Shown: positions 25,033 to 54,638 of the stretch, one piece after another
Numbering within the stretch: position 1 is the stretch's first letter
How the letters are laid out: the number at the start of each line of letters is the position of its first letter
Assembly: GCA_045653245.1 (NCBI GenBank)
Contig: JAZOLS010000029.1
Span: 2,190-66,189, forward strand
DNA from: Faecousia sp.
Lineage (GTDB): Bacteria > Bacillota > Clostridia > Oscillospirales > Oscillospiraceae
Reading direction: 5' to 3'
Length of the DNA: 64,000 nucleotides
Notes under the pieces: generated by a model
Told to the model about the DNA's origin: nothing
The model's database searches: none
The model's input: the letters and a program-made list of their open reading frames with translations, nothing else
Position numbers and translations under genes: made by a program

Positions 25033-25077
25033 AAAAAATATGGCTGACCGCCAGTTGAAGAACCGGTAGTCAACCAT
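25033..25077 (-). terminator. Riboswitch-controlled terminator overlapping the aptamer 3' half
   Basis: AUGGUUGACUACCGGUU-CUUC-AACUGGCGGUCAGCCAU, 16 of 17 pairs, then AUUUUUU. Confidence 0.8.
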
Positions 25078-25127
25078 TTACGGTGGTTCGTAGAAACGCT
25101 TACCCCTATTGTAAGCATATACCCAAT
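25061..25127 (-). ncRNA. Purine riboswitch aptamer, guanine-type discriminator (C74)
   Basis: GUA-UAU-GCUUAC-AAUAGGG-GUAAGC-GUUUCUAC-GAACCA-CCGUAAA-UGGUUG-ACUAC matches the purine riboswitch core (J2/3 GUUUCUAC, L3 CCGUAAA, L2 GG kissing). Confidence 0.92.
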
Positions 25128-25167
25128 ATGTAGCATTTCGCCAAAAGATTGGTTCAATGTGTTGTGG

Positions 25168-26200: not shown

Positions 26201-26289
26201 GGAGAGATGTCCGAGCGGTTTAAGGAGCTAGTCTTGAAAACTAGTGATGGGGCAACCCACCGTGGGTTCGAATCCCACTCTCTCCGCCA
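26201..26289 (+). tRNA. tRNA-Ser (anticodon UGA)
   Basis: GGAGAGA/TCTCTCC acceptor stem, anticodon arm CTAGT-CTTGAAA-ACTAG, long variable arm, GGTTCGAATCC, G73, encoded CCA. Confidence 0.97.
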
Positions 26290-45500: not shown

Positions 45501-46097
45501 GGCGGTGTTGACCATGTTCTGGCTTCCAACAAGGACGTCAACATCTTCGTCTTCGACACCGAGGTTTACTCCAACACCGGCGGTCAGGCTTCCAAGGCTT
45601 CCAACATCGGTCAGGTTGCGCAGTTCGCAGCTTCCGGTAAGGAAACCAAGAAGAAGTCCCTGGCTGAGATCGCCATGAGCTACGGCTATGTTTACGTTGC
45701 TCAGATCGCTATGGGTGCTAACCAAGCTCAGACCATCAAGGCTATCTGCGAGGCTGAAGCTTACAACGGTCCTTCTCTGATCATCGGCTACGCTCCCTGT
45801 GAGATGCACTCCATCAAGGGCGGCATGATGAACTGCCAGGCTGAGATGAAGAAGGCTGTTGACTGCGGTTACTGGAATCTGTTCCGCTTCGACCCCTCCA
45901 AGGAGACCGGTAAGTTCACTCTGGACAGCAAGGCTCCCAAGGATGGCTATCAGGAATTCCTGATGAACGAAGCCCGTTACAGCCGTCTGACCCGTGAGTT
46001 CCCCGAGCGTGCAACCGAACTGTTCGCTAAAAACGAGGCTGCTGCTAAGGAGCGTTACGAGCACCTGCTGAAACTGGTTGAGATGTATAAAGACTAA
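42570..46097 (+). CDS. nifJ: Pyruvate:ferredoxin (flavodoxin) oxidoreductase
   Basis: MDGNTAAAH, YPITPSS, EMQSEAGAAG, GLGGDGTVGANK, two CxxCxxCxxxCP motifs, EFSGSCAGC, GGDGWAYDIG; TTG start after AGGAGG; strong codon bias. Confidence 0.97.
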   Translation: MARKFKTMDGNTAAAHVSYAFTEVAGIYPITPSSPMADNVDQWSAAGRKNIFGDTVKVVEMQSEAGAAGTVHGSLAAGALTTTYTASQGLLLMIPNMYKIAGELLPSVFHVSARTVAAQALNIFGDHSDVYACRQTGFAMLAETNVQEVMDLGAVAHLASIEGRVPFINFFDGFRTSHEIQKIAIWDYEDLKEMCNMEAVEEFRKHSLNPERPAMRGSHENDDIFFQHREACNKYYNALPAVVEKYMAKVNEKLGTNYQLFNYYGAEDADRIIICMGSFCDVAEEVIDYLNANGEKVGLVKVRLFRPWSSKHLLDAIPASVKKIAVLDRTKEPGSQGEPLYQDVVMALAKAGKADITVVGGRYGLGSKDTHPASVFAVFEELAKDAPKNEFTLGIVDDVTNLSLPEKVSPNTAAAGTIECKFWGLGGDGTVGANKNSIKIIGDHTGKYVQAYFQYDSKKTGGVTVSHLRFGDNAIKSPYYINKADFVACHNPSYITKGFKIVQDVKPGGVFLINCQWSLEELEHHLDAASKRYIAENNIQLYTINAIDLAIKVGMGKRTNTILQSAFFSLAKVMPAEDAVKYMKDAAEKSYAKKGMDVVEKNWNAIDAGATAYVKIDVPAAWANAEDVKVELDLEGPADTVKVVKTILNPVGKMDGYSLPVSAFDGLADGQFPLGAAAYEKRGVAVTVPEWDATKCIQCNNCAYVCPHATIRPYALTEAEVAAAPAAAKIVPVKAGKGKGVYSYTMAVSPLDCMGCGVCVGVCPTNAITMVPQETQLDQQEVFNYMVSKVAAKEDMQDNTVKGSQFKKPLLEFSGSCAGCAETSYARLVTQLFGDRMYISNATGCSSIWGGPAATSPYCVNENGHGPAWANSLFEDNAEHGLGMYTAQAVIRESLANKVRSVMETTVCDERKAACQAWLDTFNDGEANKAATKALIANLEAKVCCDTVKDILSKKEYLSKKSVWIFGGDGWAYDIGFGGVDHVLASNKDVNIFVFDTEVYSNTGGQASKASNIGQVAQFAASGKETKKKSLAEIAMSYGYVYVAQIAMGANQAQTIKAICEAEAYNGPSLIIGYAPCEMHSIKGGMMNCQAEMKKAVDCGYWNLFRFDPSKETGKFTLDSKAPKDGYQEFLMNEARYSRLTREFPERATELFAKNEAAAKERYEHLLKLVEMYKD

Positions 46098-46110
46098 GTC
46101 TTAACAACTG

Positions 46111-46140
46111 TCCGCCCCTGGCTGCCCAGGGGCGGATTTT
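46111..46140 (+). terminator. nifJ terminator
   Basis: TCCGCCCCTGG-CTGC-CCAGGGGCGGA-TTTT. Confidence 0.85.
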
Positions 46141-46149
46141 AAAACACGC

Positions 46150-46244
46150 TGTCATTCCGAGCCAGTGAGCACACTGGCGTGGGAATCCCCATCTTAAGAG
46201 GAGATTGCCACACCAGTGACCTCTGTCACTGGTTCGCAATGACA
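46150..46244. repeat. Inverted pair of (C/T)GTC-type REP-like elements
   Basis: TGTCATTCCGAGCCAGTG..CACTGGCGTGGGAATCCC ... GAGATTGCCACACCAGTGAC..GTCACTGGTTCGCAATGACA. Confidence 0.8.
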
Positions 46245-46263
46245 TATTATATGAGGAAATACT

Positions 46264-46419
46264 ATGTACTGTACAATCATTGACAGCCGTGGCGATTATG
46301 CCTTTGTAAAATATGATGACACCGGCGTGGTGTCCGAAGTAGCCATTGCGCTGCTTCCCTTTGGCGTGGATGTGGGTGATCGGCTGATATTCCAAAATTT
46401 CTCATACGAAATTGTTTAA
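46264..46419 (+). CDS. 51-aa small beta-barrel-like protein MYCTIIDSRGDYAFVKYDDTGVVSEVAIALLPFGVDVGDRLIFQNFSYEIV
   Basis: RBS GAGGA, ATG..TAA; GDYA...LLP.GV.VGD pattern reminiscent of DUF3006/HypC-like small domains; not in ORF track. Confidence 0.7.
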   Translation: MYCTIIDSRGDYAFVKYDDTGVVSEVAIALLPFGVDVGDRLIFQNFSYEIV

Positions 46420-46435
46420 AATATCAAAATAGCAC

Positions 46436-46464
46436 TTGCAATCCTAATTGGATGGTGCTATAAT
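46436..46464 (+). promoter_or_regulatory. sigma-A promoter of aro operon
   Basis: TTGCAA-17-TATAAT with extended TG. Confidence 0.85.
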
Positions 46465-46497
46465 GGGTAAAAATCCACCGTGGGAGGCCATTTGTAC

Positions 46498-46563
46498 ATG
46501 GTTATCGCAAGCTTTGCTGCACAGTTTTATTTTAACTATTACTTTTTTGTCGACAGAAAGTAA
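46498..46563 (+). CDS. Phe/Tyr-rich attenuator leader peptide MVIASFAAQFYFNYYFFVDRK
   Basis: RBS GGGAGG; 5 Phe and 3 Tyr codons, 7 of 8 consecutive; lies between promoter and terminator. Confidence 0.85.
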   Translation: MVIASFAAQFYFNYYFFVDRK

Positions 46564-46613
46564 TAGCGTTTTGTGCTGCAAGGATTTTTTCAAAGATAAA
46601 ATCGTATTTACCA

Positions 46614-46655
46614 GGCGCCGCACGAATCGCAGTTCGTGCGGTGTCTTTTGTTGTT
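46614..46655 (+). terminator. Attenuator terminator (3:4 hairpin)
   Basis: GGCGCCGCACGAA-TCGCAG-TTCGTGCGGTGTC-TTTTGTTGTT; 5' arm can instead pair with 46566..46579. Confidence 0.85.
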
Positions 46656-46670
46656 AGGAGATGTTTTATT

Positions 46671-47672
46671 ATGATCGCAGTTCTCAAACATGGCACAACC
46701 GAGGCGCAAACTCAGCATCTGATTGAATGGCTGAAAAATATGAATCTTGATGTGCATATCTCTCAAGGCAAGGAGGTCACCATTCTCGGTCTGATCGGTG
46801 ACACCAGCCGGGTGGATATGGAGCTTTTGGGTTCACTGGACATCGTGGAAAGCGTGAAACGGGTATCCGAGCCTTTCAAACAAGTCAATCGCAAATTCCA
46901 TCCCCTGGATACGGTTGTTTGTGTTGGTGATGCGAAAGTGGGCGGTGGCAATTTTGCTATGATCGCCGGCCCTTGCAGTGTGGAATCCGAGGAACAGATC
47001 ATTGACGTTGCCATTGCTGTCAAGGCAGGCGGTGCAAACATTTTGCGTGGCGGCGCATTCAAACCCCGCACCTCACCCTACGCTTTCCAGGGGATGAAGG
47101 GCGCAGGCATTGAATTGCTTGTAAAAGCAAAGGCCGCAACCGGGCTTCCCATTATTACGGAGATCATGAACATCAGTACGCTGGATCTGTTTAATGATGT
47201 GGACATCATCCAGGTTGGCGCGCGAAATATGCAGAATTTTGATCTGCTGAAAGAACTGGGCAAGACCAATAAGCCCATTTTGCTGAAGCGAGGACTGGCA
47301 AACACCTTGCAGGAATTGCTCATGAGTGCGGAATACATCATGAGCGAGGGCAACGAAAATGTCATTCTATGCGAACGTGGCATCCGCACATTTGAAACTT
47401 ATACAAGAAACACCCTGGATCTGTCCGCTGTTTCCGTTTTGCAGGAGCTGAGCCATCTGCCAGTCATTGTTGACCCCAGTCATGCAACCGGCAAAGCCAA
47501 ACTTGTACCCCCTATGGCCTTTGCTGCTGCAGCCGCCGGTGCAGACGGACTCATGATTGAAGTCCACAACAATCCAGCTTGCGCATTGTGCGACGGTGCA
47601 CAGTCCCTTACCCCTGTCCAGTTTGAGCATCTGAACAAACGTGTTCAGCAAATTCGTGAGGTCATAAAATGA
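46671..47672 (+). CDS. aroF: DAHP synthase type I-beta with N-terminal regulatory domain
   Basis: IAGPCSVES, RGGAFKPRTSPYAFQG, QVGARNMQN, LKRG, CERGIRTF, DPSH. Confidence 0.93.
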   Translation: MIAVLKHGTTEAQTQHLIEWLKNMNLDVHISQGKEVTILGLIGDTSRVDMELLGSLDIVESVKRVSEPFKQVNRKFHPLDTVVCVGDAKVGGGNFAMIAGPCSVESEEQIIDVAIAVKAGGANILRGGAFKPRTSPYAFQGMKGAGIELLVKAKAATGLPIITEIMNISTLDLFNDVDIIQVGARNMQNFDLLKELGKTNKPILLKRGLANTLQELLMSAEYIMSEGNENVILCERGIRTFETYTRNTLDLSAVSVLQELSHLPVIVDPSHATGKAKLVPPMAFAAAAAGADGLMIEVHNNPACALCDGAQSLTPVQFEHLNKRVQQIREVIK

Positions 47673-48499
47673 ATATCGGTATTTTAGGACTTGGGCTCAT
47701 TGGAGGCTCCATGGCAAGAGCATATTCGAAAGCCGGCCATGCGGTTTTTGCTTTTGACAATGATGAAAACATCTTGACTTTTGCAGAACTTGCCGGTGCA
47801 GTTCACGGAAAATTGCATGAAGAAACGATCCGCACGTGCGATCTGATCCTGCTTGCCATTTATCCCGGCGGATGCATCCAATGGGTGGAAGAAAACGCCC
47901 ACATCATTGCAAAAAGTGCCCTGGTAATGGATCTGTGCGGTGTGAAAGAAGACATTTGCAACCGGTGCTTTGCCCTTGCTGCGGAATACGGGTTTACTTT
48001 TGTAGGCGGTCACCCAATGGCCGGTTCGCACCATTCCGGTTTCAAGGCCAGTCGCTCCAACCTGTTCCAGGGGGCACCTATGGTGCTTGTTCCCCCCAGA
48101 TTTGACGAAATGCAGTTGCTGCAAAGGGTAAAAGACGCCCTTGCACCTTGTAATTTCGGGTCTTTTTCCGTATGCACCGCTCAGGAGCATGATCGGCTCA
48201 TTGCCTTTACCTCACAAATGCCCCACGTGCTGAGCAATGCGTACATCAAATCCCCCACTGCTCTGTCCCATAAGGGTTTTTCTGCAGGCAGTTATAAAGA
48301 TCTGACCCGTGTTGCCTGGCTGAATCCCCAAATGTGGGCGGAACTTTGCATGGAAAACCGGGAAAATATGCTGTTTGAACTGGATACCTATATTTCCAGT
48401 CTGCAATCGTATCGGACTGCTCTTGAAAATCAAGACACCGGCGCTTTGATCGCCCTGCTGGACGAGGGAAAGCGTCGCAAGGAGGAAGTAGACGGATGA
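47669..48499 (+). CDS. tyrA: Prephenate/arogenate dehydrogenase
   Basis: GLGLIGGS, GGHPMAG, HD...TSQMPH, AGSYKDLTRVA. Confidence 0.92.
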   Translation: MNIGILGLGLIGGSMARAYSKAGHAVFAFDNDENILTFAELAGAVHGKLHEETIRTCDLILLAIYPGGCIQWVEENAHIIAKSALVMDLCGVKEDICNRCFALAAEYGFTFVGGHPMAGSHHSGFKASRSNLFQGAPMVLVPPRFDEMQLLQRVKDALAPCNFGSFSVCTAQEHDRLIAFTSQMPHVLSNAYIKSPTALSHKGFSAGSYKDLTRVAWLNPQMWAELCMENRENMLFELDTYISSLQSYRTALENQDTGALIALLDEGKRRKEEVDG

Positions 48500-49548
48500 A
48501 TGTCGTCAAAGTTAATACCTCAACTGCATATGAAGTAAAAATCGGCTCCGGATTGCTTTCTGCCCTAGGGACAGAAGTGTCGGCTGTTACCAAAGCCGGT
48601 ATTGTGGCCATCGTAAGCGATTCCAATGTATGGCCTCTCTACGGGAAAACCGTGCAGAAAAGTTTGGTAAACTCCGGTCTTTCTGTAATTTCCTATGTAT
48701 TTCCTGCAGGAGAAAGCAGTAAAAACGGCAGCACTTATTTATCTCTTTTGAATTTCCTTGCAGAAAATCATATGACCCGGAGTGATTGTCTCATTGCCCT
48801 TGGTGGCGGCGTTGTGGGAGATCTGACAGGTTTTGCGGCCGCAACCTATCTCCGGGGTATCCCCTACATTCAAGTTCCCACAACCCTATTGGCGGCTGTG
48901 GATTCCTCTGTTGGTGGCAAGACAGCCATCGACCTGGAATGGGGGAAGAATCTTGCAGGTGCTTTCTATCAGCCCAGATTGGTGCTGTGTGACACAGATA
49001 CTCTGAACAGTCTACCGGTCGAGATCTTCCGGGATGGCTGTGCGGAAGTCATCAAGTACGGAATTTTGTACGACCCCAACCTGTTTGCACATCTGCAGGA
49101 ACATGGTCTTGCCTTTGATCGGGAAACTGTTATCACCCGTTGTGTGGAATGGAAACGGGATATCGTTGGCGAGGATGAATTCGACACAGGAAACCGTATG
49201 AAACTAAATCTTGGTCACACCATTGGTCACGCCGTAGAATCCAATAGCAATTATACCATCTCTCACGGCAATGCTGTTGCCATTGGCATGGGCATTGTCG
49301 CCCGTTCTGCAGGCAAATTCGGAATTTGCTCTTATCAAACTACAAAAAATGTAGAACTTACTCTAAAGCAATTCAGTTTGCCCTCCAAAACAGGGTATAC
49401 TGCTCAGCAATTATTTGACTCTGCACTGTCGGACAAAAAACGCAGCGGTGGTACGGTCAATCTTATCGTGCCGGAAGAAATCGGACGCTGCTGTATCCGC
49501 CCCACTCCCGTCAATGAACTGAAAGCCTTTATTGAAGCAGGTCTTTAA
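48496..49548 (+). CDS. aroB: 3-dehydroquinate synthase
   Basis: ALGGGVVGDLTGF, PTTLLAAVDSSVGGKT, LNLGHTIGHA. Confidence 0.95.
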   Translation: MNVVKVNTSTAYEVKIGSGLLSALGTEVSAVTKAGIVAIVSDSNVWPLYGKTVQKSLVNSGLSVISYVFPAGESSKNGSTYLSLLNFLAENHMTRSDCLIALGGGVVGDLTGFAAATYLRGIPYIQVPTTLLAAVDSSVGGKTAIDLEWGKNLAGAFYQPRLVLCDTDTLNSLPVEIFRDGCAEVIKYGILYDPNLFAHLQEHGLAFDRETVITRCVEWKRDIVGEDEFDTGNRMKLNLGHTIGHAVESNSNYTISHGNAVAIGMGIVARSAGKFGICSYQTTKNVELTLKQFSLPSKTGYTAQQLFDSALSDKKRSGGTVNLIVPEEIGRCCIRPTPVNELKAFIEAGL

Positions 49549-49549
49549 T

Positions 49550-50728
49550 ATGGATATTACCATCTACCCCCAAAAACTTTGTGGCACGATAGCCGCCATC
49601 CCATCCAAATCCCAGGCACACCGACTTTTGATCTGCGCCGCATTCGCTGACAAGCCTACTACACTCATTTGCCCGGAAACCAACCGGGATATGGATGCAA
49701 CAGCCGACTGTCTGCGTGCTTTAGGAGCTCAAATTGAATATGATAACCTGGGTTATCACGTAACCCCCTCCAAAGAGTTACCTGCAAAGGCGATACTACC
49801 CTGCTGTGAAAGCGGCTCCACTTTGCGTTTTCTGATGCCTGTGGTGGGTGCATTGGGTGTAGATACAACACTTACCATGGAGGGAAGACTTCCTCAGCGT
49901 CCCCTATCCCCCCTATGGGAAGAAATGGAACGCATGGGCTGTTCCTTATCCCGTCCCACAGAAAACACGATCCGCTGCGAAGGAAAACTCCAATGCGGTG
50001 TGTACCGCATTGACGGTGGGGTTTCCAGTCAGTTTATCACCGGATTGATGTTAGCCCTTTCCCTGTTGGAGGGAGAAAGCACATTGCACATCACAGGAAC
50101 GCTGCAATCGGCCCCTTATGTGGAACTGACGCGTGATACCATGGCGCTCTTTGGCGTCACAGGTAGCACCTTTGGCGGAAAGAAATTTATTTCTCCGGGG
50201 CAATTGACCGTGGAGGGTGACTGGAGCAACGGTGCATTCTTTCTGGCAGCAAAAGCATTAGGGAGTAATTTGTCTGTTACCAACTTGAAGGAAGATTCCC
50301 GTCAAGGAGACCTGGCGGTTGCTCATTGGCTTTCTGAATTAGAAAACATCTGCCCTACTATTTCGGCAGCAGATATCCCCGATTTGGTTCCGATTCTGTC
50401 AGTGGTTGCTGCCGACAATCACGGCGCAGTCTTTACAGATATTCAGCGTCTGCGACTGAAAGAATCCGACCGTGTGGCCTCCGTCATTGCCATGCTGGAG
50501 GCACTGGGAGGCTCCGCTACGGCTACGGAAGACACCTTGACTGTTTACCCTGGCACACTTTCCGGCGGAACTGTAGACAGTTGCAATGACCATCGCATCG
50601 CCATGTCTGCAGCCATTGCTGCCACAGTCTGTACCAGCCCGGTGATCATCTTGGGTGCGGATGCCGTACAGAAGTCCTACCCCCAATTTTGGGCGGAATA
50701 CCGCCGGTTAGGAGGAGATTATGAGTAG
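49550..50728 (+). CDS. aroA: EPSP synthase
   Basis: PSKSQAHR, ESGSTLRF, SSQFITG, EGDWS, LRLKESDR, NDHRIAM, KSYP; start 49550. Confidence 0.93.
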   Translation: MDITIYPQKLCGTIAAIPSKSQAHRLLICAAFADKPTTLICPETNRDMDATADCLRALGAQIEYDNLGYHVTPSKELPAKAILPCCESGSTLRFLMPVVGALGVDTTLTMEGRLPQRPLSPLWEEMERMGCSLSRPTENTIRCEGKLQCGVYRIDGGVSSQFITGLMLALSLLEGESTLHITGTLQSAPYVELTRDTMALFGVTGSTFGGKKFISPGQLTVEGDWSNGAFFLAAKALGSNLSVTNLKEDSRQGDLAVAHWLSELENICPTISAADIPDLVPILSVVAADNHGAVFTDIQRLRLKESDRVASVIAMLEALGGSATATEDTLTVYPGTLSGGTVDSCNDHRIAMSAAIAATVCTSPVIILGADAVQKSYPQFWAEYRRLGGDYE

Positions 50729-51809
50729 TACCTACGGTAAAAATTTGAAATTAACCATTTTCGGCCAGTCCCACGGTCCTGCTATTGGCATGACTTTGGA
50801 CGGCATTCCAGCAGGCCTTTGTGTAGATTTTGAGGAACTGCAATCCTTTTTGAATCGCAGAGCGCCGGGTCACAATGACTGGTCAACACCCCGAAAAGAG
50901 GAAGATGAACCGGAATTTCTTGCCGGCATCGTGGATGGCTACACCTGCGGTGCTCCCATCGCTGCGATGATCCGCAATACCAATACCCGTTCCGGTGACT
51001 ATGACAATCTGAAAGATTGCCCCCGGCCCGGTCATGCGGATTATACAGCACAGATCAAGTACGGCGGATTTCAGGATGTTGCCGGCGGAGGTCATTTTTC
51101 CGGCAGACTGACCGCCCCCCTATGCATCGCCGGCGGTATGTGCAAGCAATGGCTGGAAGATATGGGTATTTGCATTGGCGCGCACATCATTCAGATTGGC
51201 CCGGAAAAGGCAGAACGCTTTCATCCGCTTACTCCGCAACTGGATCAGGTTGGACAGATTTTCCCCACACTCACTGCAGAAACTTCAGAATGTTTCCAGT
51301 CTGTCATCAGCGAATCCCGTTCTCAAGGCGATAGTGTTGGTGGCAGAATCGAATGTGCCATTGTCGGCCTGCCGGCCGGCATTGGAGAGCCGATGTTTGG
51401 CGGAGTGGAGGGGCGTATCGCACAGATTCTATACGGTATTCCAGCCGTCAAGAATGTCGGTTTTGGTATGAGTGAATCCTTTGCTGAAATGCATGGCAGC
51501 GAAAGCAACGATGCCTTTACCTTTGAAAGCGGTCAAATCAGAACCGTTACCAATCACTGTGGCGGCATTTTAGGCGGCATTACCAACGGCATGCCAGTGA
51601 TTTTTGATGTCACCATTAAGCCCACACCATCTATTGCAAAGGCTCAAAAAACAGTCAATTTGAAGACAGGCGAAGTCACGACCATTGCGGTCAAGGGCCG
51701 GCATGATCCCTGTATCGTGCCTCGGGCTGTACCCGTAGTCGAGGCCGCTGCAGCCATTGCAATCTTTGATATGATTTTGGGCAACACCCAGTCAATGAAA
51801 AGAGGATAA
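50721..51809 (+). CDS. aroC: Chorismate synthase
   Basis: FGQSHG, RPGHAD, GGGHFSGRLTA, GGILGGI, KPTPSI, GRHDPC. Confidence 0.95.
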   Translation: MSSTYGKNLKLTIFGQSHGPAIGMTLDGIPAGLCVDFEELQSFLNRRAPGHNDWSTPRKEEDEPEFLAGIVDGYTCGAPIAAMIRNTNTRSGDYDNLKDCPRPGHADYTAQIKYGGFQDVAGGGHFSGRLTAPLCIAGGMCKQWLEDMGICIGAHIIQIGPEKAERFHPLTPQLDQVGQIFPTLTAETSECFQSVISESRSQGDSVGGRIECAIVGLPAGIGEPMFGGVEGRIAQILYGIPAVKNVGFGMSESFAEMHGSESNDAFTFESGQIRTVTNHCGGILGGITNGMPVIFDVTIKPTPSIAKAQKTVNLKTGEVTTIAVKGRHDPCIVPRAVPVVEAAAAIAIFDMILGNTQSMKRG

Positions 51810-51811
51810 TT

Positions 51812-52954
51812 ATGGATTTGAAAGAACTGAGAAGTCAAATCGACGAGATCGATGATCAATTGGTTGAATTATTCGGAAAACGCATGGAAGTCGCCGCCGC
51901 AATCGGTGACTACAAAAAGGCAAATAACCTGCCGGTATTCGTTCCTGCCCGGGAACGGGAGAAACTGAAGGATGTAGCGGAAAAGGCCGGCCCGGAGATG
52001 GCAAACTACACCCGTGTACTGTATTCCATGCTGTTTGAACTAAGCAGAAGTTATCAGAGCAAGCGCAATGATGTGCTTTCTCCCCTGTACCACCAGATCT
52101 ACAACGCAATCGAAAATACACCGAAACTATTCCCCACTGCACCCATGGTCGCCTGCCAGGGTGTGGAGGGCGCATACGCCCAAATCGCTTGCGAAAAGAT
52201 CTTCCAAAATCCTTTCATTATGTATTTCAAGAATTTTGACAGCGTGTTTACTGCCATTGATCAGGGTCTGTGCCAATATGGCATTCTCCCCATCGAGAAT
52301 TCCACCGCAGGGTCTGTAAAAAAGGTCTACGATCTGATGATCCGACACAAATTTTCCATTGTTCGTACTTTCCGTCTGAAAATTGACCACAATCTGCTGG
52401 CAAATACCGGTGCAGATCTTTCTGGCATAAAAGAAATTTATTCTCACGAGCAGGCAATCAATCAGTGCAGTGCATTCCTGGCAAAAATACCCGGTGTCAA
52501 GATCATTCCCGTTGAAAATACTGCCGTTGCCGCTGAAATGGTGGCCTCCTCCGGACGCAAGGATGTGGCGGCCATCTCCAGCCGAAGTTGCATAGAACTG
52601 TACGGACTTGTCAGCCTGGCAACATCCATCCAGGACGAGGGCAACAATCGCACCCGGTTTATCTGCATCAGTAAAAATCTGGAAGTTTATCCCGGATCTG
52701 ACAAAACCAGTATTATGATGATCTTGAATCACCGGCCCGGCGCACTTTATCGGGTGCTTGCACGGTTTTACGCCCTGGGCATCAATGTGACGAAACTGGA
52801 ATCCCGTCCAATCCCCGACCGGGATTTTGAGTTCATGTTCTACTTTGATTTGGAAACTTCCATCTATTCCGAGGAATTTGTACAACTTATCTGCGAATTG
52901 GATGAACTCAGCGAAGAATTTACGTATCTCGGCAGTTACAGTGAGGTCGTGTGA
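51812..52954 (+). CDS. pheA: Chorismate mutase / prephenate dehydratase
   Basis: LRSQIDEID, QGVEGAY, PIENSTAG, TRF, ESRP (ACT domain). Confidence 0.93.
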   Translation: MDLKELRSQIDEIDDQLVELFGKRMEVAAAIGDYKKANNLPVFVPAREREKLKDVAEKAGPEMANYTRVLYSMLFELSRSYQSKRNDVLSPLYHQIYNAIENTPKLFPTAPMVACQGVEGAYAQIACEKIFQNPFIMYFKNFDSVFTAIDQGLCQYGILPIENSTAGSVKKVYDLMIRHKFSIVRTFRLKIDHNLLANTGADLSGIKEIYSHEQAINQCSAFLAKIPGVKIIPVENTAVAAEMVASSGRKDVAAISSRSCIELYGLVSLATSIQDEGNNRTRFICISKNLEVYPGSDKTSIMMILNHRPGALYRVLARFYALGINVTKLESRPIPDRDFEFMFYFDLETSIYSEEFVQLICELDELSEEFTYLGSYSEVV

Positions 52955-54180
52955 TGAAGTGCGGACTGTTGGGTGCCAAATTGGAGCACAGTTATTCTCC
53001 GCAGATCCATACTCACCTGGGCGATTACACCTATGAATTGCTCGAGAAAAATACAGAAAACCTTGAAGAATTCATTAAGAAATCCAATTTTTCAGGTTTT
53101 AATGTTACCATACCGTATAAAAGCACCGTAATTCCCTATTGCGACGAGTTGACACCCGTTGCCGCGCGATTGGGTGCGGTAAATACCATCGTTCGGCAGA
53201 CAAACGGGAAGATCATCGGCCATAATACCGACTATTTCGGGTTTGATACCATGCTCCGCAGAAGTGGTTTGCGTGTATCCGGACAAAAGGTACTGGTTTT
53301 AGGTACGGGCGGTGCATCCAAAACCGCCGTTGCGGTTTTGCAGGATCACGGTGCACAGGTGGTAACCATTTCCCGGTCCGGTGAGAACAATTACACAAAT
53401 CTGCATCTTCATACAGATGCTTCTGTAATCGTCAATACCACACCTGTGGGAATGTACCCGAACACCGGCGTTTCTCCGGTTTGTTTGGGTATTTTCCCCA
53501 ACCTTGAGGGTGTATTGGACGTGATCTATAATCCTGCCCGCACCCAGTTGCTAATGGATGCAGAGAAACGTGGCATTGTAGCAATGAACGGTCTTTTGAT
53601 GCTGGTTGCACAGGCCAAAGAATCCGCTGAGTGGTTTACCGGTAAAAAGATCCATGATGGCAAGATTGACGAAATCTATAGACTGCTGCAGAAACAGATG
53701 GAAAATGTCATTCTGATCGGTATGCCCGGGTCGGGTAAATCCACCGTTGGGCACATGATTGCGGAGCGTCTTGGCAAAGAATTTATCGATGCGGATGCAT
53801 TGATCGGTGAAAAAGCAGGATGCACCATCCCGGAAATTTTTTCTGCGCAAGGCGAAGTAGGTTTTCGGGCTATAGAAACAGAAGTTCTTGAGAAAATCGG
53901 CAAATTATCCGGGAAAGTCATTGCAACCGGTGGCGGTTGTGTTACGAGACAGGAGAACTACCCCCTACTCCATCAAAATGGCACATTATTTTGGCTGGAA
54001 CGGGAGATTTCGGTGCTTCCGACAGATGGCCGTCCGCTATCCCAGGCAACGGCATTGGAAGAAATGTACCGCATTCGCAAACCGCTTTACACTTTTTTTG
54101 CCGATCATTGCATTGGCAACAATGACAAACCTTCAGATGCAGTGGAAAAGATTCTGAGAATTTGGGAGGAATACAAATGA
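52954..54180 (+). CDS. aroE: Shikimate dehydrogenase - shikimate kinase fusion
   Basis: HSYSP, NVTIPYK, GAVNT, NTD, DVIYNP; then LIGMPGSGKS, FR..E, ATGGG, RPL. Confidence 0.92.
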   Translation: MKCGLLGAKLEHSYSPQIHTHLGDYTYELLEKNTENLEEFIKKSNFSGFNVTIPYKSTVIPYCDELTPVAARLGAVNTIVRQTNGKIIGHNTDYFGFDTMLRRSGLRVSGQKVLVLGTGGASKTAVAVLQDHGAQVVTISRSGENNYTNLHLHTDASVIVNTTPVGMYPNTGVSPVCLGIFPNLEGVLDVIYNPARTQLLMDAEKRGIVAMNGLLMLVAQAKESAEWFTGKKIHDGKIDEIYRLLQKQMENVILIGMPGSGKSTVGHMIAERLGKEFIDADALIGEKAGCTIPEIFSAQGEVGFRAIETEVLEKIGKLSGKVIATGGGCVTRQENYPLLHQNGTLFWLEREISVLPTDGRPLSQATALEEMYRIRKPLYTFFADHCIGNNDKPSDAVEKILRIWEEYK

Positions 54181-54608
54181 AACTGCTTGTAATCAACGGC
54201 CCGAATATCAATATGCTGGGCATTCGCGAACCGGGTATTTACGGCAAGAATACCTATGCCGATCTGCTTGCACTATTGGAACGGACTTCACAGGATACCG
54301 GCATGCAGATCGATCATTTCCAATCCAATCACGAAGGCGCGATCGTGGACACCATCCAAGCGGCCTACAGTGTATACGATGGCATCGTCATCAATCCTGC
54401 TGCTTACACCCACACCTCTGTGGCGATTCTGGATGCGCTGAAGGCGGTTTCCATTCCGGCGGTGGAAGTGCACATTTCCGATGTGGATTCCCGGGAGGCT
54501 TTCCGGCAGATCTCCTACCCCGGTCTATATTGTGAAAAAGCCATCAAGGGCCAGGGCATCGACGGATACCGTCAAGCGATTCTATATTTACAAGAAAAAT
54601 ACGGATAA
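54177..54608 (+). CDS. aroQ: Type II 3-dehydroquinate dehydratase
   Basis: INGPNINMLGIREP..YG, QSNHEG, INPAAYTHTS, EVHIS; start 54177. Confidence 0.95.
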   Translation: MKLLVINGPNINMLGIREPGIYGKNTYADLLALLERTSQDTGMQIDHFQSNHEGAIVDTIQAAYSVYDGIVINPAAYTHTSVAILDALKAVSIPAVEVHISDVDSREAFRQISYPGLYCEKAIKGQGIDGYRQAILYLQEKYG

Positions 54609-54609
54609 G

Positions 54610-54638
54610 AAAAAGGCTGTCTTTCGACAGCCTTTTCG
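54610..54638. terminator. Bidirectional terminator
   Basis: AAAAGGCTGTC-TTTC-GACAGCCTTTT. Confidence 0.8.

Follow-up and report, generated by a model that had tools for sequence, protein, structure and literature searches.

Introduction

Among the systems closest to the one described here are the enterobacterial leaders of the pheL, trpL, hisL and thrL class, of which thrL and ilvL are known to serve two amino acids each. Two further leaders have been placed upstream of aroF. One is aroR of C. glutamicum (Neshat 2014, as relayed by the review PMC11802643), and the other is uORFC-13-1, a motif represented in its published account by 24 sequences, all from Acholeplasma and environmental DNA, with "at least one" Phe codon in the upstream ORF (uORF) (Brewer 2021, PMC8632094). 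Within the Firmicutes, a study whose cases were confined to 17 genomes predicted His leaders for C. difficile and for members of the B. cereus group (PMC9413887), and a Leu attenuator of ilvD has been shown in S. aureus (PMC5794164). As far as these two accounts go, they qualify a preliminary description of the present locus, which had set it against a Firmicute rule of T-box or TRAP control of aromatic genes; amino-acid leader attenuators are less exceptional in this phylum than was stated there. In B. subtilis, attenuation at tlrB and vmlR involves polymerase pausing, the paused 3' end lying 11-12 nt beyond a hairpin, according to the accounts in PMC9226507 and PMC12288461. Our literature search, beyond which lay older subscription surveys of attenuation, found no account of a Phe/Tyr leader upstream of aroF in Clostridia. 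The main text of Narunsky 2024 contains no mention of aroF, and its supplement or the alignments of Brewer 2021 could list the motif.

The aroF leader and its operon

We analysed a 64,000-nucleotide stretch of DNA from a Faecousia sp. contig (JAZOLS010000029.1; the window, whose numbering is used throughout, with features on the plus strand unless noted). The genome assembly comprises 1.64 Mb and is 78% complete, and the nearest named relatives of its aroF belong to Faecousia and other Oscillospiraceae, at no more than 83% identity. A box scan located a sigma-A type promoter with an extended -10 element (TG) at 46436..46464 (TTGCAA-17-TATAAT), which is the sole 10/12 plus-strand site within 45800..47000 and resembles boxes before homologous leaders; transcription is predicted to start near 46471. 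The ribosome-binding site GGGAGG (46482..46487) precedes a leader ORF of 21 codons (46498..46563) that begins with ATG at 46498, ends with TAA at 46563, has an additional TAG stop right behind it, and contains five Phe, three Tyr and no Trp codons. Promoter, ribosome-binding site and leader composition thus bear out the preliminary description. The putative control codons, F-Y-F-N-Y-Y-F-F, occupy 46525..46548, and at the codon frequency of this genome the probability of at least seven Phe/Tyr codons in eight is about 1e-7. Genome-wide, four short ATG-initiated ORFs contain at least six Phe/Tyr codons in eight, and the aro leader has the best Shine-Dalgarno (SD) match among them. Pfam holds no family that matches the leader peptide.

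These translation signals are shared by homologous aroF leaders, of which 105/118 have an SD match of at least 4/6 and 116/118 start with ATG. A few leaders (L089, L096, L098, L107, L111 and L354) are without an SD and, by eye, start about 6-7 nt after the -10 box, which suggests that their peptides are translated leaderless.

Eight genes follow the leader in the order aroF-tyrA-aroB-aroA-aroC-pheA-aroEK-aroQ, as confirmed by NCBIfam. The first regulated gene, aroF, encodes DAHP synthase (46671..47672) and is followed by tyrA (47669..48499; prephenate dehydrogenase family, scoring below curated cut-offs), by aroB, aroA and aroC (48496..51809), by pheA for chorismate mutase / prephenate dehydratase (51812..52954), and by an aroE-aroK fusion together with aroQ (52951..54608), after which a predicted terminator (54611..54636) closes the operon. 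In agreement with the earlier reading of the operon, NCBIfam identified tyrA and pheA and no trp genes between aroF and aroQ. An Rfam search likewise upheld the absence of a T-box, and returned no other family, at the leader locus. The same search found 12 T-box matches (RF00230) elsewhere in this genome, including matches upstream of pheS and of a stand-alone trpB. Therefore, T-boxes appear to govern both the supply of Trp and the charging of Phe-tRNA in this organism, with the Phe/Tyr pathway under the aro leader. A covariance model of the leader (see below) found a single copy in the genome, and a scan of terminator-bearing upstream regions revealed no further convincing leader-peptide attenuators; a Phe/Tyr-rich match before the PFOR gene was rejected, as it lies out of frame within a coding sequence.

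Several other features were seen in the window. Just 5' of the aro promoter lies a 51-codon ORF (46264..46419) with a weak match to DUF3006 (E 0.02, below cut-off). A palindromic repeat (46145..46250), located 3' of the PFOR terminator and 5' of the aro promoter, is matched 59 times in the genome and is probably a mobile repeat of REP-like type. A purine riboswitch and a tRNA gene are found at 25047..25144 (minus strand) and 26201..26286 (plus strand), respectively.

Alternative helices and the position of the ribosome

Folding of the leader, which is more stable than expected by chance (z = -4.5; 0/200 shuffles as good), predicts a set of competing helices. Segment 1a (46514..46524), which consists of the Phe-Ala-Ala-Gln codons, is the outer arm of a predicted anti-antiterminator and pairs with 46571..46581. 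An inner hairpin covers the control codons (46536..46566; 46536..46547 pairs with 46555..46566). The switching arm, segment 2b (46566..46581), may pair with either 1a or segment 3 (46617..46630), and the latter doubles as terminator 5' arm plus loop and as antiterminator partner. An intrinsic terminator with a U-rich tail is predicted at 46613..46655; its 3:4 stem (46613..46646; 15 pairs as counted by the tool, -24.6 kcal/mol) ends 24 nt 5' of aroF and leads into an interrupted U tract (46646..46655). Both the terminator just before aroF and the 2:3 antiterminator of 12 pairs in 14 were part of the preliminary description, and both were recovered, the antiterminator (46566..46579 with 46617..46630) having 11 Watson-Crick pairs and one G-U pair. 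The 1:2 hairpin proposed over the control codons is also present. Its supposed role in blocking the antiterminator did not hold up, since it shares no more than about one base with the antiterminator arm and the two coexist in folds; in our folding model it is the outer arm at 46514..46524, rather than the inner hairpin, that sequesters the arm.

Very probably, then, this sequence is a ribosome-mediated attenuator that turns on the eight-gene shikimate/Tyr/Phe operon upon a shortage of charged tRNA-Phe or tRNA-Tyr. With no ribosome on the leader, 1a is predicted to hold 2b and the terminator to form. When a ribosome stalls at the control codons, it would cover 1a, so that 2b can pair with segment 3 and readthrough is permitted. 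A ribosome that has reached the stop codon would instead cover 2b, so that the terminator forms, and in about half of the homologs the ribosome would run on into the arm and cover 2b in the same way. When the window sequence was folded as a transcript ending just past segment 3, the calculated probability of the antiterminator was 0.00 without a ribosome, about 0.8 (0.81) when any of codons 4-18 occupied the A site, and, with a ribosome at the stop codon and an assumed footprint of 9, 12 or 15 nt, 0.58, 0.35 or 0.11, respectively. Among 140 homologs the corresponding medians were 0.28 with no ribosome, about 0.8 on the control codons and 0.00-0.06 at the stop. For the full-length leader at equilibrium the terminator wins in every case that was folded; within this model, therefore, the attenuator decision must be kinetic.

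The spacing of stall and stop sites is maintained among the 140 distinct leaders, which include loci selected by the model and are not independent where they are kin. In 137/140 the ORF either extends into or past the arm or has its stop codon no more than 12 nt ahead of it, and in none does the stop codon lie more than 17 nt before it. In 130/140 the last control codon precedes the arm by 13 nt or more, a spacing of which only the lower bound was built in, because the arm was sought 3' of that codon. Moreover, the 5' part of the leader pairs with the arm better than shuffled sequences do in 131/140, and the arm pairs better with its own segment 3 than with that of other species in 132/140 (-16.9 versus -12.1 kcal/mol).

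The aromatic-rich peptide, with its recurrent Ala or Phe-Ala stretch ahead of the run, might bring to mind an arrest peptide of the TnaC/SpeFL kind, in which the nascent chain in the tunnel senses a free aromatic amino acid or other ligand and tRNA shortage plays no part. We regard this as highly improbable. The Ala codons are accounted for by the 1a:2b helix, the leaders vary from 14 to 46 codons with no fixed order of Phe and Tyr, and, as a stall opens the operon here, stalling induced by the product would amount to positive feedback on biosynthesis.

Conservation and distribution

The preliminary description had proposed aligning related aroF leaders in search of conserved Phe/Tyr runs and covarying stems, and this comparison supports both, the second in part. 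An aroF gene was found in 124/151 genomes of the family, and among the best 30 of those loci, the window's own included, all 30 have an upstream Phe/Tyr-rich ORF and a terminator. Of 80 named aroF loci, 78 have enough upstream DNA, and 60 of these (58 plus two duplicates of family loci) passed a leader-plus-terminator filter, with 14 failing for want of a leader and four for want of a terminator. Carriers include Lachnospiraceae, Acutalibacteraceae and Christensenellaceae, as well as records from Kiritimatiellae, Lentisphaerae and Treponema; the cultured Hominicoprocola fusiformis (L065) is also among them. In records named Lentisphaerae, Kiritimatiellae, Treponema and Alloprevotella (L087, L101, L114, L118 and L069) the leader accompanies a Clostridia-like aroF, reflecting either horizontal transfer or contamination of bins. 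Some aroF promoters that do not have the element (L077, L108, L112, L113 and L121) carry repeated short boxes, TAAAAGC / GCTTTAAA, which are candidate operators of a DNA-binding regulator that replaces the attenuator.

A covariance model built from the 30 family leaders matched 72/150 family genomes (the training set among them), 32/150 genomes of the class, in 16 further families, and 4/150 genomes of the phylum. Of these last, one is a genuine leader of aroF from a different class, and another (G382) looks spurious. In the 30-sequence alignment the terminator and inner hairpin together have 93% of cells paired with 92 two-sided changes, a level reached by 0/500 shuffles. Most of this covariation signal comes from the terminator, where two-sided changes occur in 11/13 pairs; the inner hairpin (94% of cells paired) shows them in 2/8 pairs and is conserved more than covarying. 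Covariation of the antiterminator is modest, with 75% of cells paired and 16 two-sided changes (1/500 shuffles), which fall in only five pairs, a number matched by 168/500 shuffles.

A few bases 3' of the hairpin are invariant beyond what pairing needs, for example a U whose partner is G in 27/30 antiterminators, and such conservation could be read as the mark of an RNA switch bound by a protein or metabolite (TRAP-like or a riboswitch) in which the ORF is incidental. The start codon, ribosome-binding site, frame and stop position are nevertheless all kept, codon identity follows the product of the operon, and Rfam contains no match; we give this reading very little credence, and ribosome-mediated attenuation remains the preferred one.

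Control codons and operon content

If the leader serves as a dual sensor, its codon mix might be expected to follow the genes that it controls. Indeed, the share of Phe among control codons, measured in the best 12-codon window of each leader, is 0.34 where the operon has tyrA only (n=20), 0.51 where it has both tyrA and pheA (n=94) and 0.68 where it has pheA only (n=5), in 119 rows kept after 13 were dropped (duplicate peptides, a mis-picked leader or no full aroF). In the named set the share is 0.28 for tyrA without prephenate dehydratase (n=10) as compared to 0.52 for both (n=39), with 8/58 rows unclassified at contig ends. Similarly, a replication set gave 0.39 for tyrA only (n=12), 0.50 for both (n=60) and 0.68 for the dehydratase without tyrA (n=5; p 0.001); this set consisted of 79 further regions plus four, of which one had no match, four were incomplete and one had neither gene. 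On an aroF tree (FastTree), of nine independent pairs a mean of 6.8 went in the same direction and 0.0 in the opposite one (median p 0.016, range 0.004-0.22), under a threshold of two more Tyr than Phe that was set after the data were seen. Two Phe-rich leaders of tyrA-only operons (L315 and L335) count against such tracking, and the classes overlap. Three genomes (G117, G133 and G211) each combine a Tyr-rich aroF-tyrA leader with a separate Phe-rich pheA leader, and a further two genomes of the tyrA-only kind have pheA in a different operon, placed after aroC.

Tracking of operon content by the codon mix is the best evidence for dual Phe and Tyr sensing, which was already suggested in the preliminary description and which we regard, from sequence comparisons of conservation, geometry and codon mix, as well supported. 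It might still be argued that only Phe is sensed in practice and that the Tyr codons are kept as the conserved stem of the inner hairpin. One TAC does sit in nearly invariant stem columns, and the Phe-Tyr-Phe leader aroR of C. glutamicum answers to Phe and not to Tyr, as its review has it (PMC11802643), which counts against dual sensing. Where pheA has left the operon, however, leaders are Tyr-rich, down to 0 Phe in one of them (L107), and the Tyr codons of aroF leaders vary synonymously (244 TAC, 208 TAT). Sensing of Phe alone therefore seems very unlikely to us, and dual sensing is preferred.

The element is also found away from aroF. Among 21 family model matches outside the listed aroF genes, five precede TrpX-like binding proteins (below cut-off), four lie before sodium/solute symporters, two of which are then followed by a paaK-like ligase, and the others are before pheA (2), paaK-like ligases (2), trpB2 (2), aroB (2), tyrA (1) and an aroF fragment (1), with one having no gene in reach and the weakest preceding a SanA-like gene. 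Trp codons occur in the leaders of 4/4 trpB2-containing units, which are few and may be related, versus 6/118 aroF leaders. As regular targets, trp genes were rejected: the element is present at just 1/60 trpB2/trpE loci (1.5 kb flanks), and most of the trpB2/trpE upstream regions listed carry T-box sequences. Another mini-ORF, some 13-20 codons long, which has an SD and, around codon 8, a Trp-Arg pair but no terminator of its own, was seen at L193:3041-3075 (minus strand) and also just 5' of trpB2 in L200, L208, L210 and L216, and is possibly a translational Trp sensor. Finally, a pathway that makes Phe, Tyr and Trp from arylacetates is known, and the element precedes paaK-like acyl-CoA ligases, often together with a sodium/solute symporter, in L187, L190, L193, L194 and L199, hinting that synthesis from arylacetates is placed under the same switch.

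Coupling, Rho and polymerase pausing

Ribosome-mediated attenuation of this type had been taken in the preliminary description to imply coupling of transcription to translation, for which we obtained no support. A short distance from stop codon to terminator has served as an indirect sign of runaway transcription, as set out in a review (PMC7858274), and predicted terminators crowd the stop codons of this genome, 222/389 (57%) starting within 12 nt of a stop (median 10), as compared to 17/54 (31%; median 23; p 4e-4) in 250 kb of E. coli. These distances come from one crude pipeline with E. coli as the only control, and compact genomes may shorten them anyway. Furthermore, no Rho was found at cut-off in this genome or in five relatives that are 96-100% complete. 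Taken together, the short distances and the lack of a detectable Rho suggest that the attenuator probably operates in an uncoupled cell.

Given this apparent lack of coupling, a pause of RNA polymerase is the more likely way of timing the switch. The polymerase would be held near 46577, some 11 nt beyond the inner hairpin, and released once an arriving ribosome melts that hairpin. By analogy with tlrB and vmlR, we put the odds of such a pause at about even. The inner hairpin is kept in 135/140 leaders, though it is unneeded for the helix competition, and the window has a conserved U-G step (46577-46578) 11 nt after it. A conserved NusG pause was not established: TTNTTT is uncommon in the spacer (21/140 leaders), TTT at the expected offset is found in 49/138 and the downstream motif is noisy, the window has only the last TTT of TTNTTT after the inner hairpin, and the host NusG, matched by eye, has N-I at the motif-reading place and thereby one of the two reading residues (N81/T82). 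Spacer length correlates weakly with the path of the ribosome (rho 0.18).

Implications

On these genomic comparisons, this probable leader-peptide attenuator is a real, widespread and apparently uncatalogued element. Its mechanism is textbook; what rises above the routine is that its control codons have been retuned in evolution and that it likely operates in the absence of coupling. A broader proposal, to which we lean somewhat less than halfway, is that one uncatalogued scaffold acts as a general aromatic sensor of gut-type Clostridia, recoded for Phe, Tyr or Trp and shared by operons for biosynthesis, transport and arylacetate salvage, and that, where cells lack Rho and transcription runs away, RNA polymerase is kept waiting for the ribosome by a dedicated hairpin that spans the control codons. 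The attenuator itself would be an amino-acid leader of very common occurrence within a phylum in which control of this sort has been thought rare, a rarity ascribed to RNA polymerase outrunning the ribosome, and the leader would provide a natural test of attenuation without coupling. The codon mix would likewise be a readable label for the aromatic amino acid served by an operon, transporter or paaK-like ligase, and could aid annotation of aromatic metabolism in uncultured Clostridia.

Comparison with known systems

The leader very likely works like pheL and trpL and yet belongs to no Rfam family. It shares with the pheL-pheA and trpL/hisL/thrL class a short ORF with tandem product codons, 1:2, 2:3 and 3:4 helices and an intrinsic terminator. 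Of the classical attenuator features, those found here are a short ORF with a ribosome-binding site, clustered product codons, a predicted and covarying intrinsic terminator, mutually exclusive antiterminator and anti-antiterminator helices (from folding, with modest covariation) and the stall/stop geometry. The Rfam Phe leader covariance model gave no match to the Clostridia leader, at gathering or at E values up to 10, and our own model gave a weak score to pheL of E. coli (26.4 bits; search of 0.93 Mb, E 0.0087). The Clostridia leader differs from the pheL class in mixing Phe with Tyr, in controlling a whole shikimate operon, in having a segment 1 divided between an anti-antiterminator on the outside and a hairpin on the inside, and in its host, which has short stop-to-terminator distances and no Rho found.

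Like the Clostridia leader, C. glutamicum aroR combines Phe/Tyr codons, a DAHP synthase operon and ribosome-mediated attenuation, whereas, compared by description as given in the review, it is actinobacterial, has three codons and responds to Phe only, in contrast to about 7-9 mixed codons in Clostridia (PMC11802643). The Acholeplasma motif uORFC-13-1 is alike in its Phe uORF, ribosome-binding site, promoter, extra stem and terminator before aroF, with attenuation predicted, and its trait of a Phe-coding uORF plus terminator 5' of aroF is present in the Clostridia leader; set side by side by description, they differ in that no Tyr sensing is proposed for uORFC-13-1 in its published account (PMC8632094). 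The two may or may not constitute one family, a question on which the match of our model to one aroF leader in another class bears. The His and Leu attenuators share leader-peptide attenuation within the Firmicutes (PMC9413887, PMC5794164), and concern other amino acids, with the His cases, as reported, confined to 17 genomes (PMC9413887) as compared to about half of one large family for the Clostridia leader. Finally, tlrB and vmlR of B. subtilis, as described, resemble it in uORF-controlled attenuation in an uncoupled Firmicute with timing by a polymerase pause, and differ from it in sensing antibiotics and in using a NusG pause at TTNTTT, a motif not clearly present in the Clostridia leader (PMC9226507, PMC12288461).
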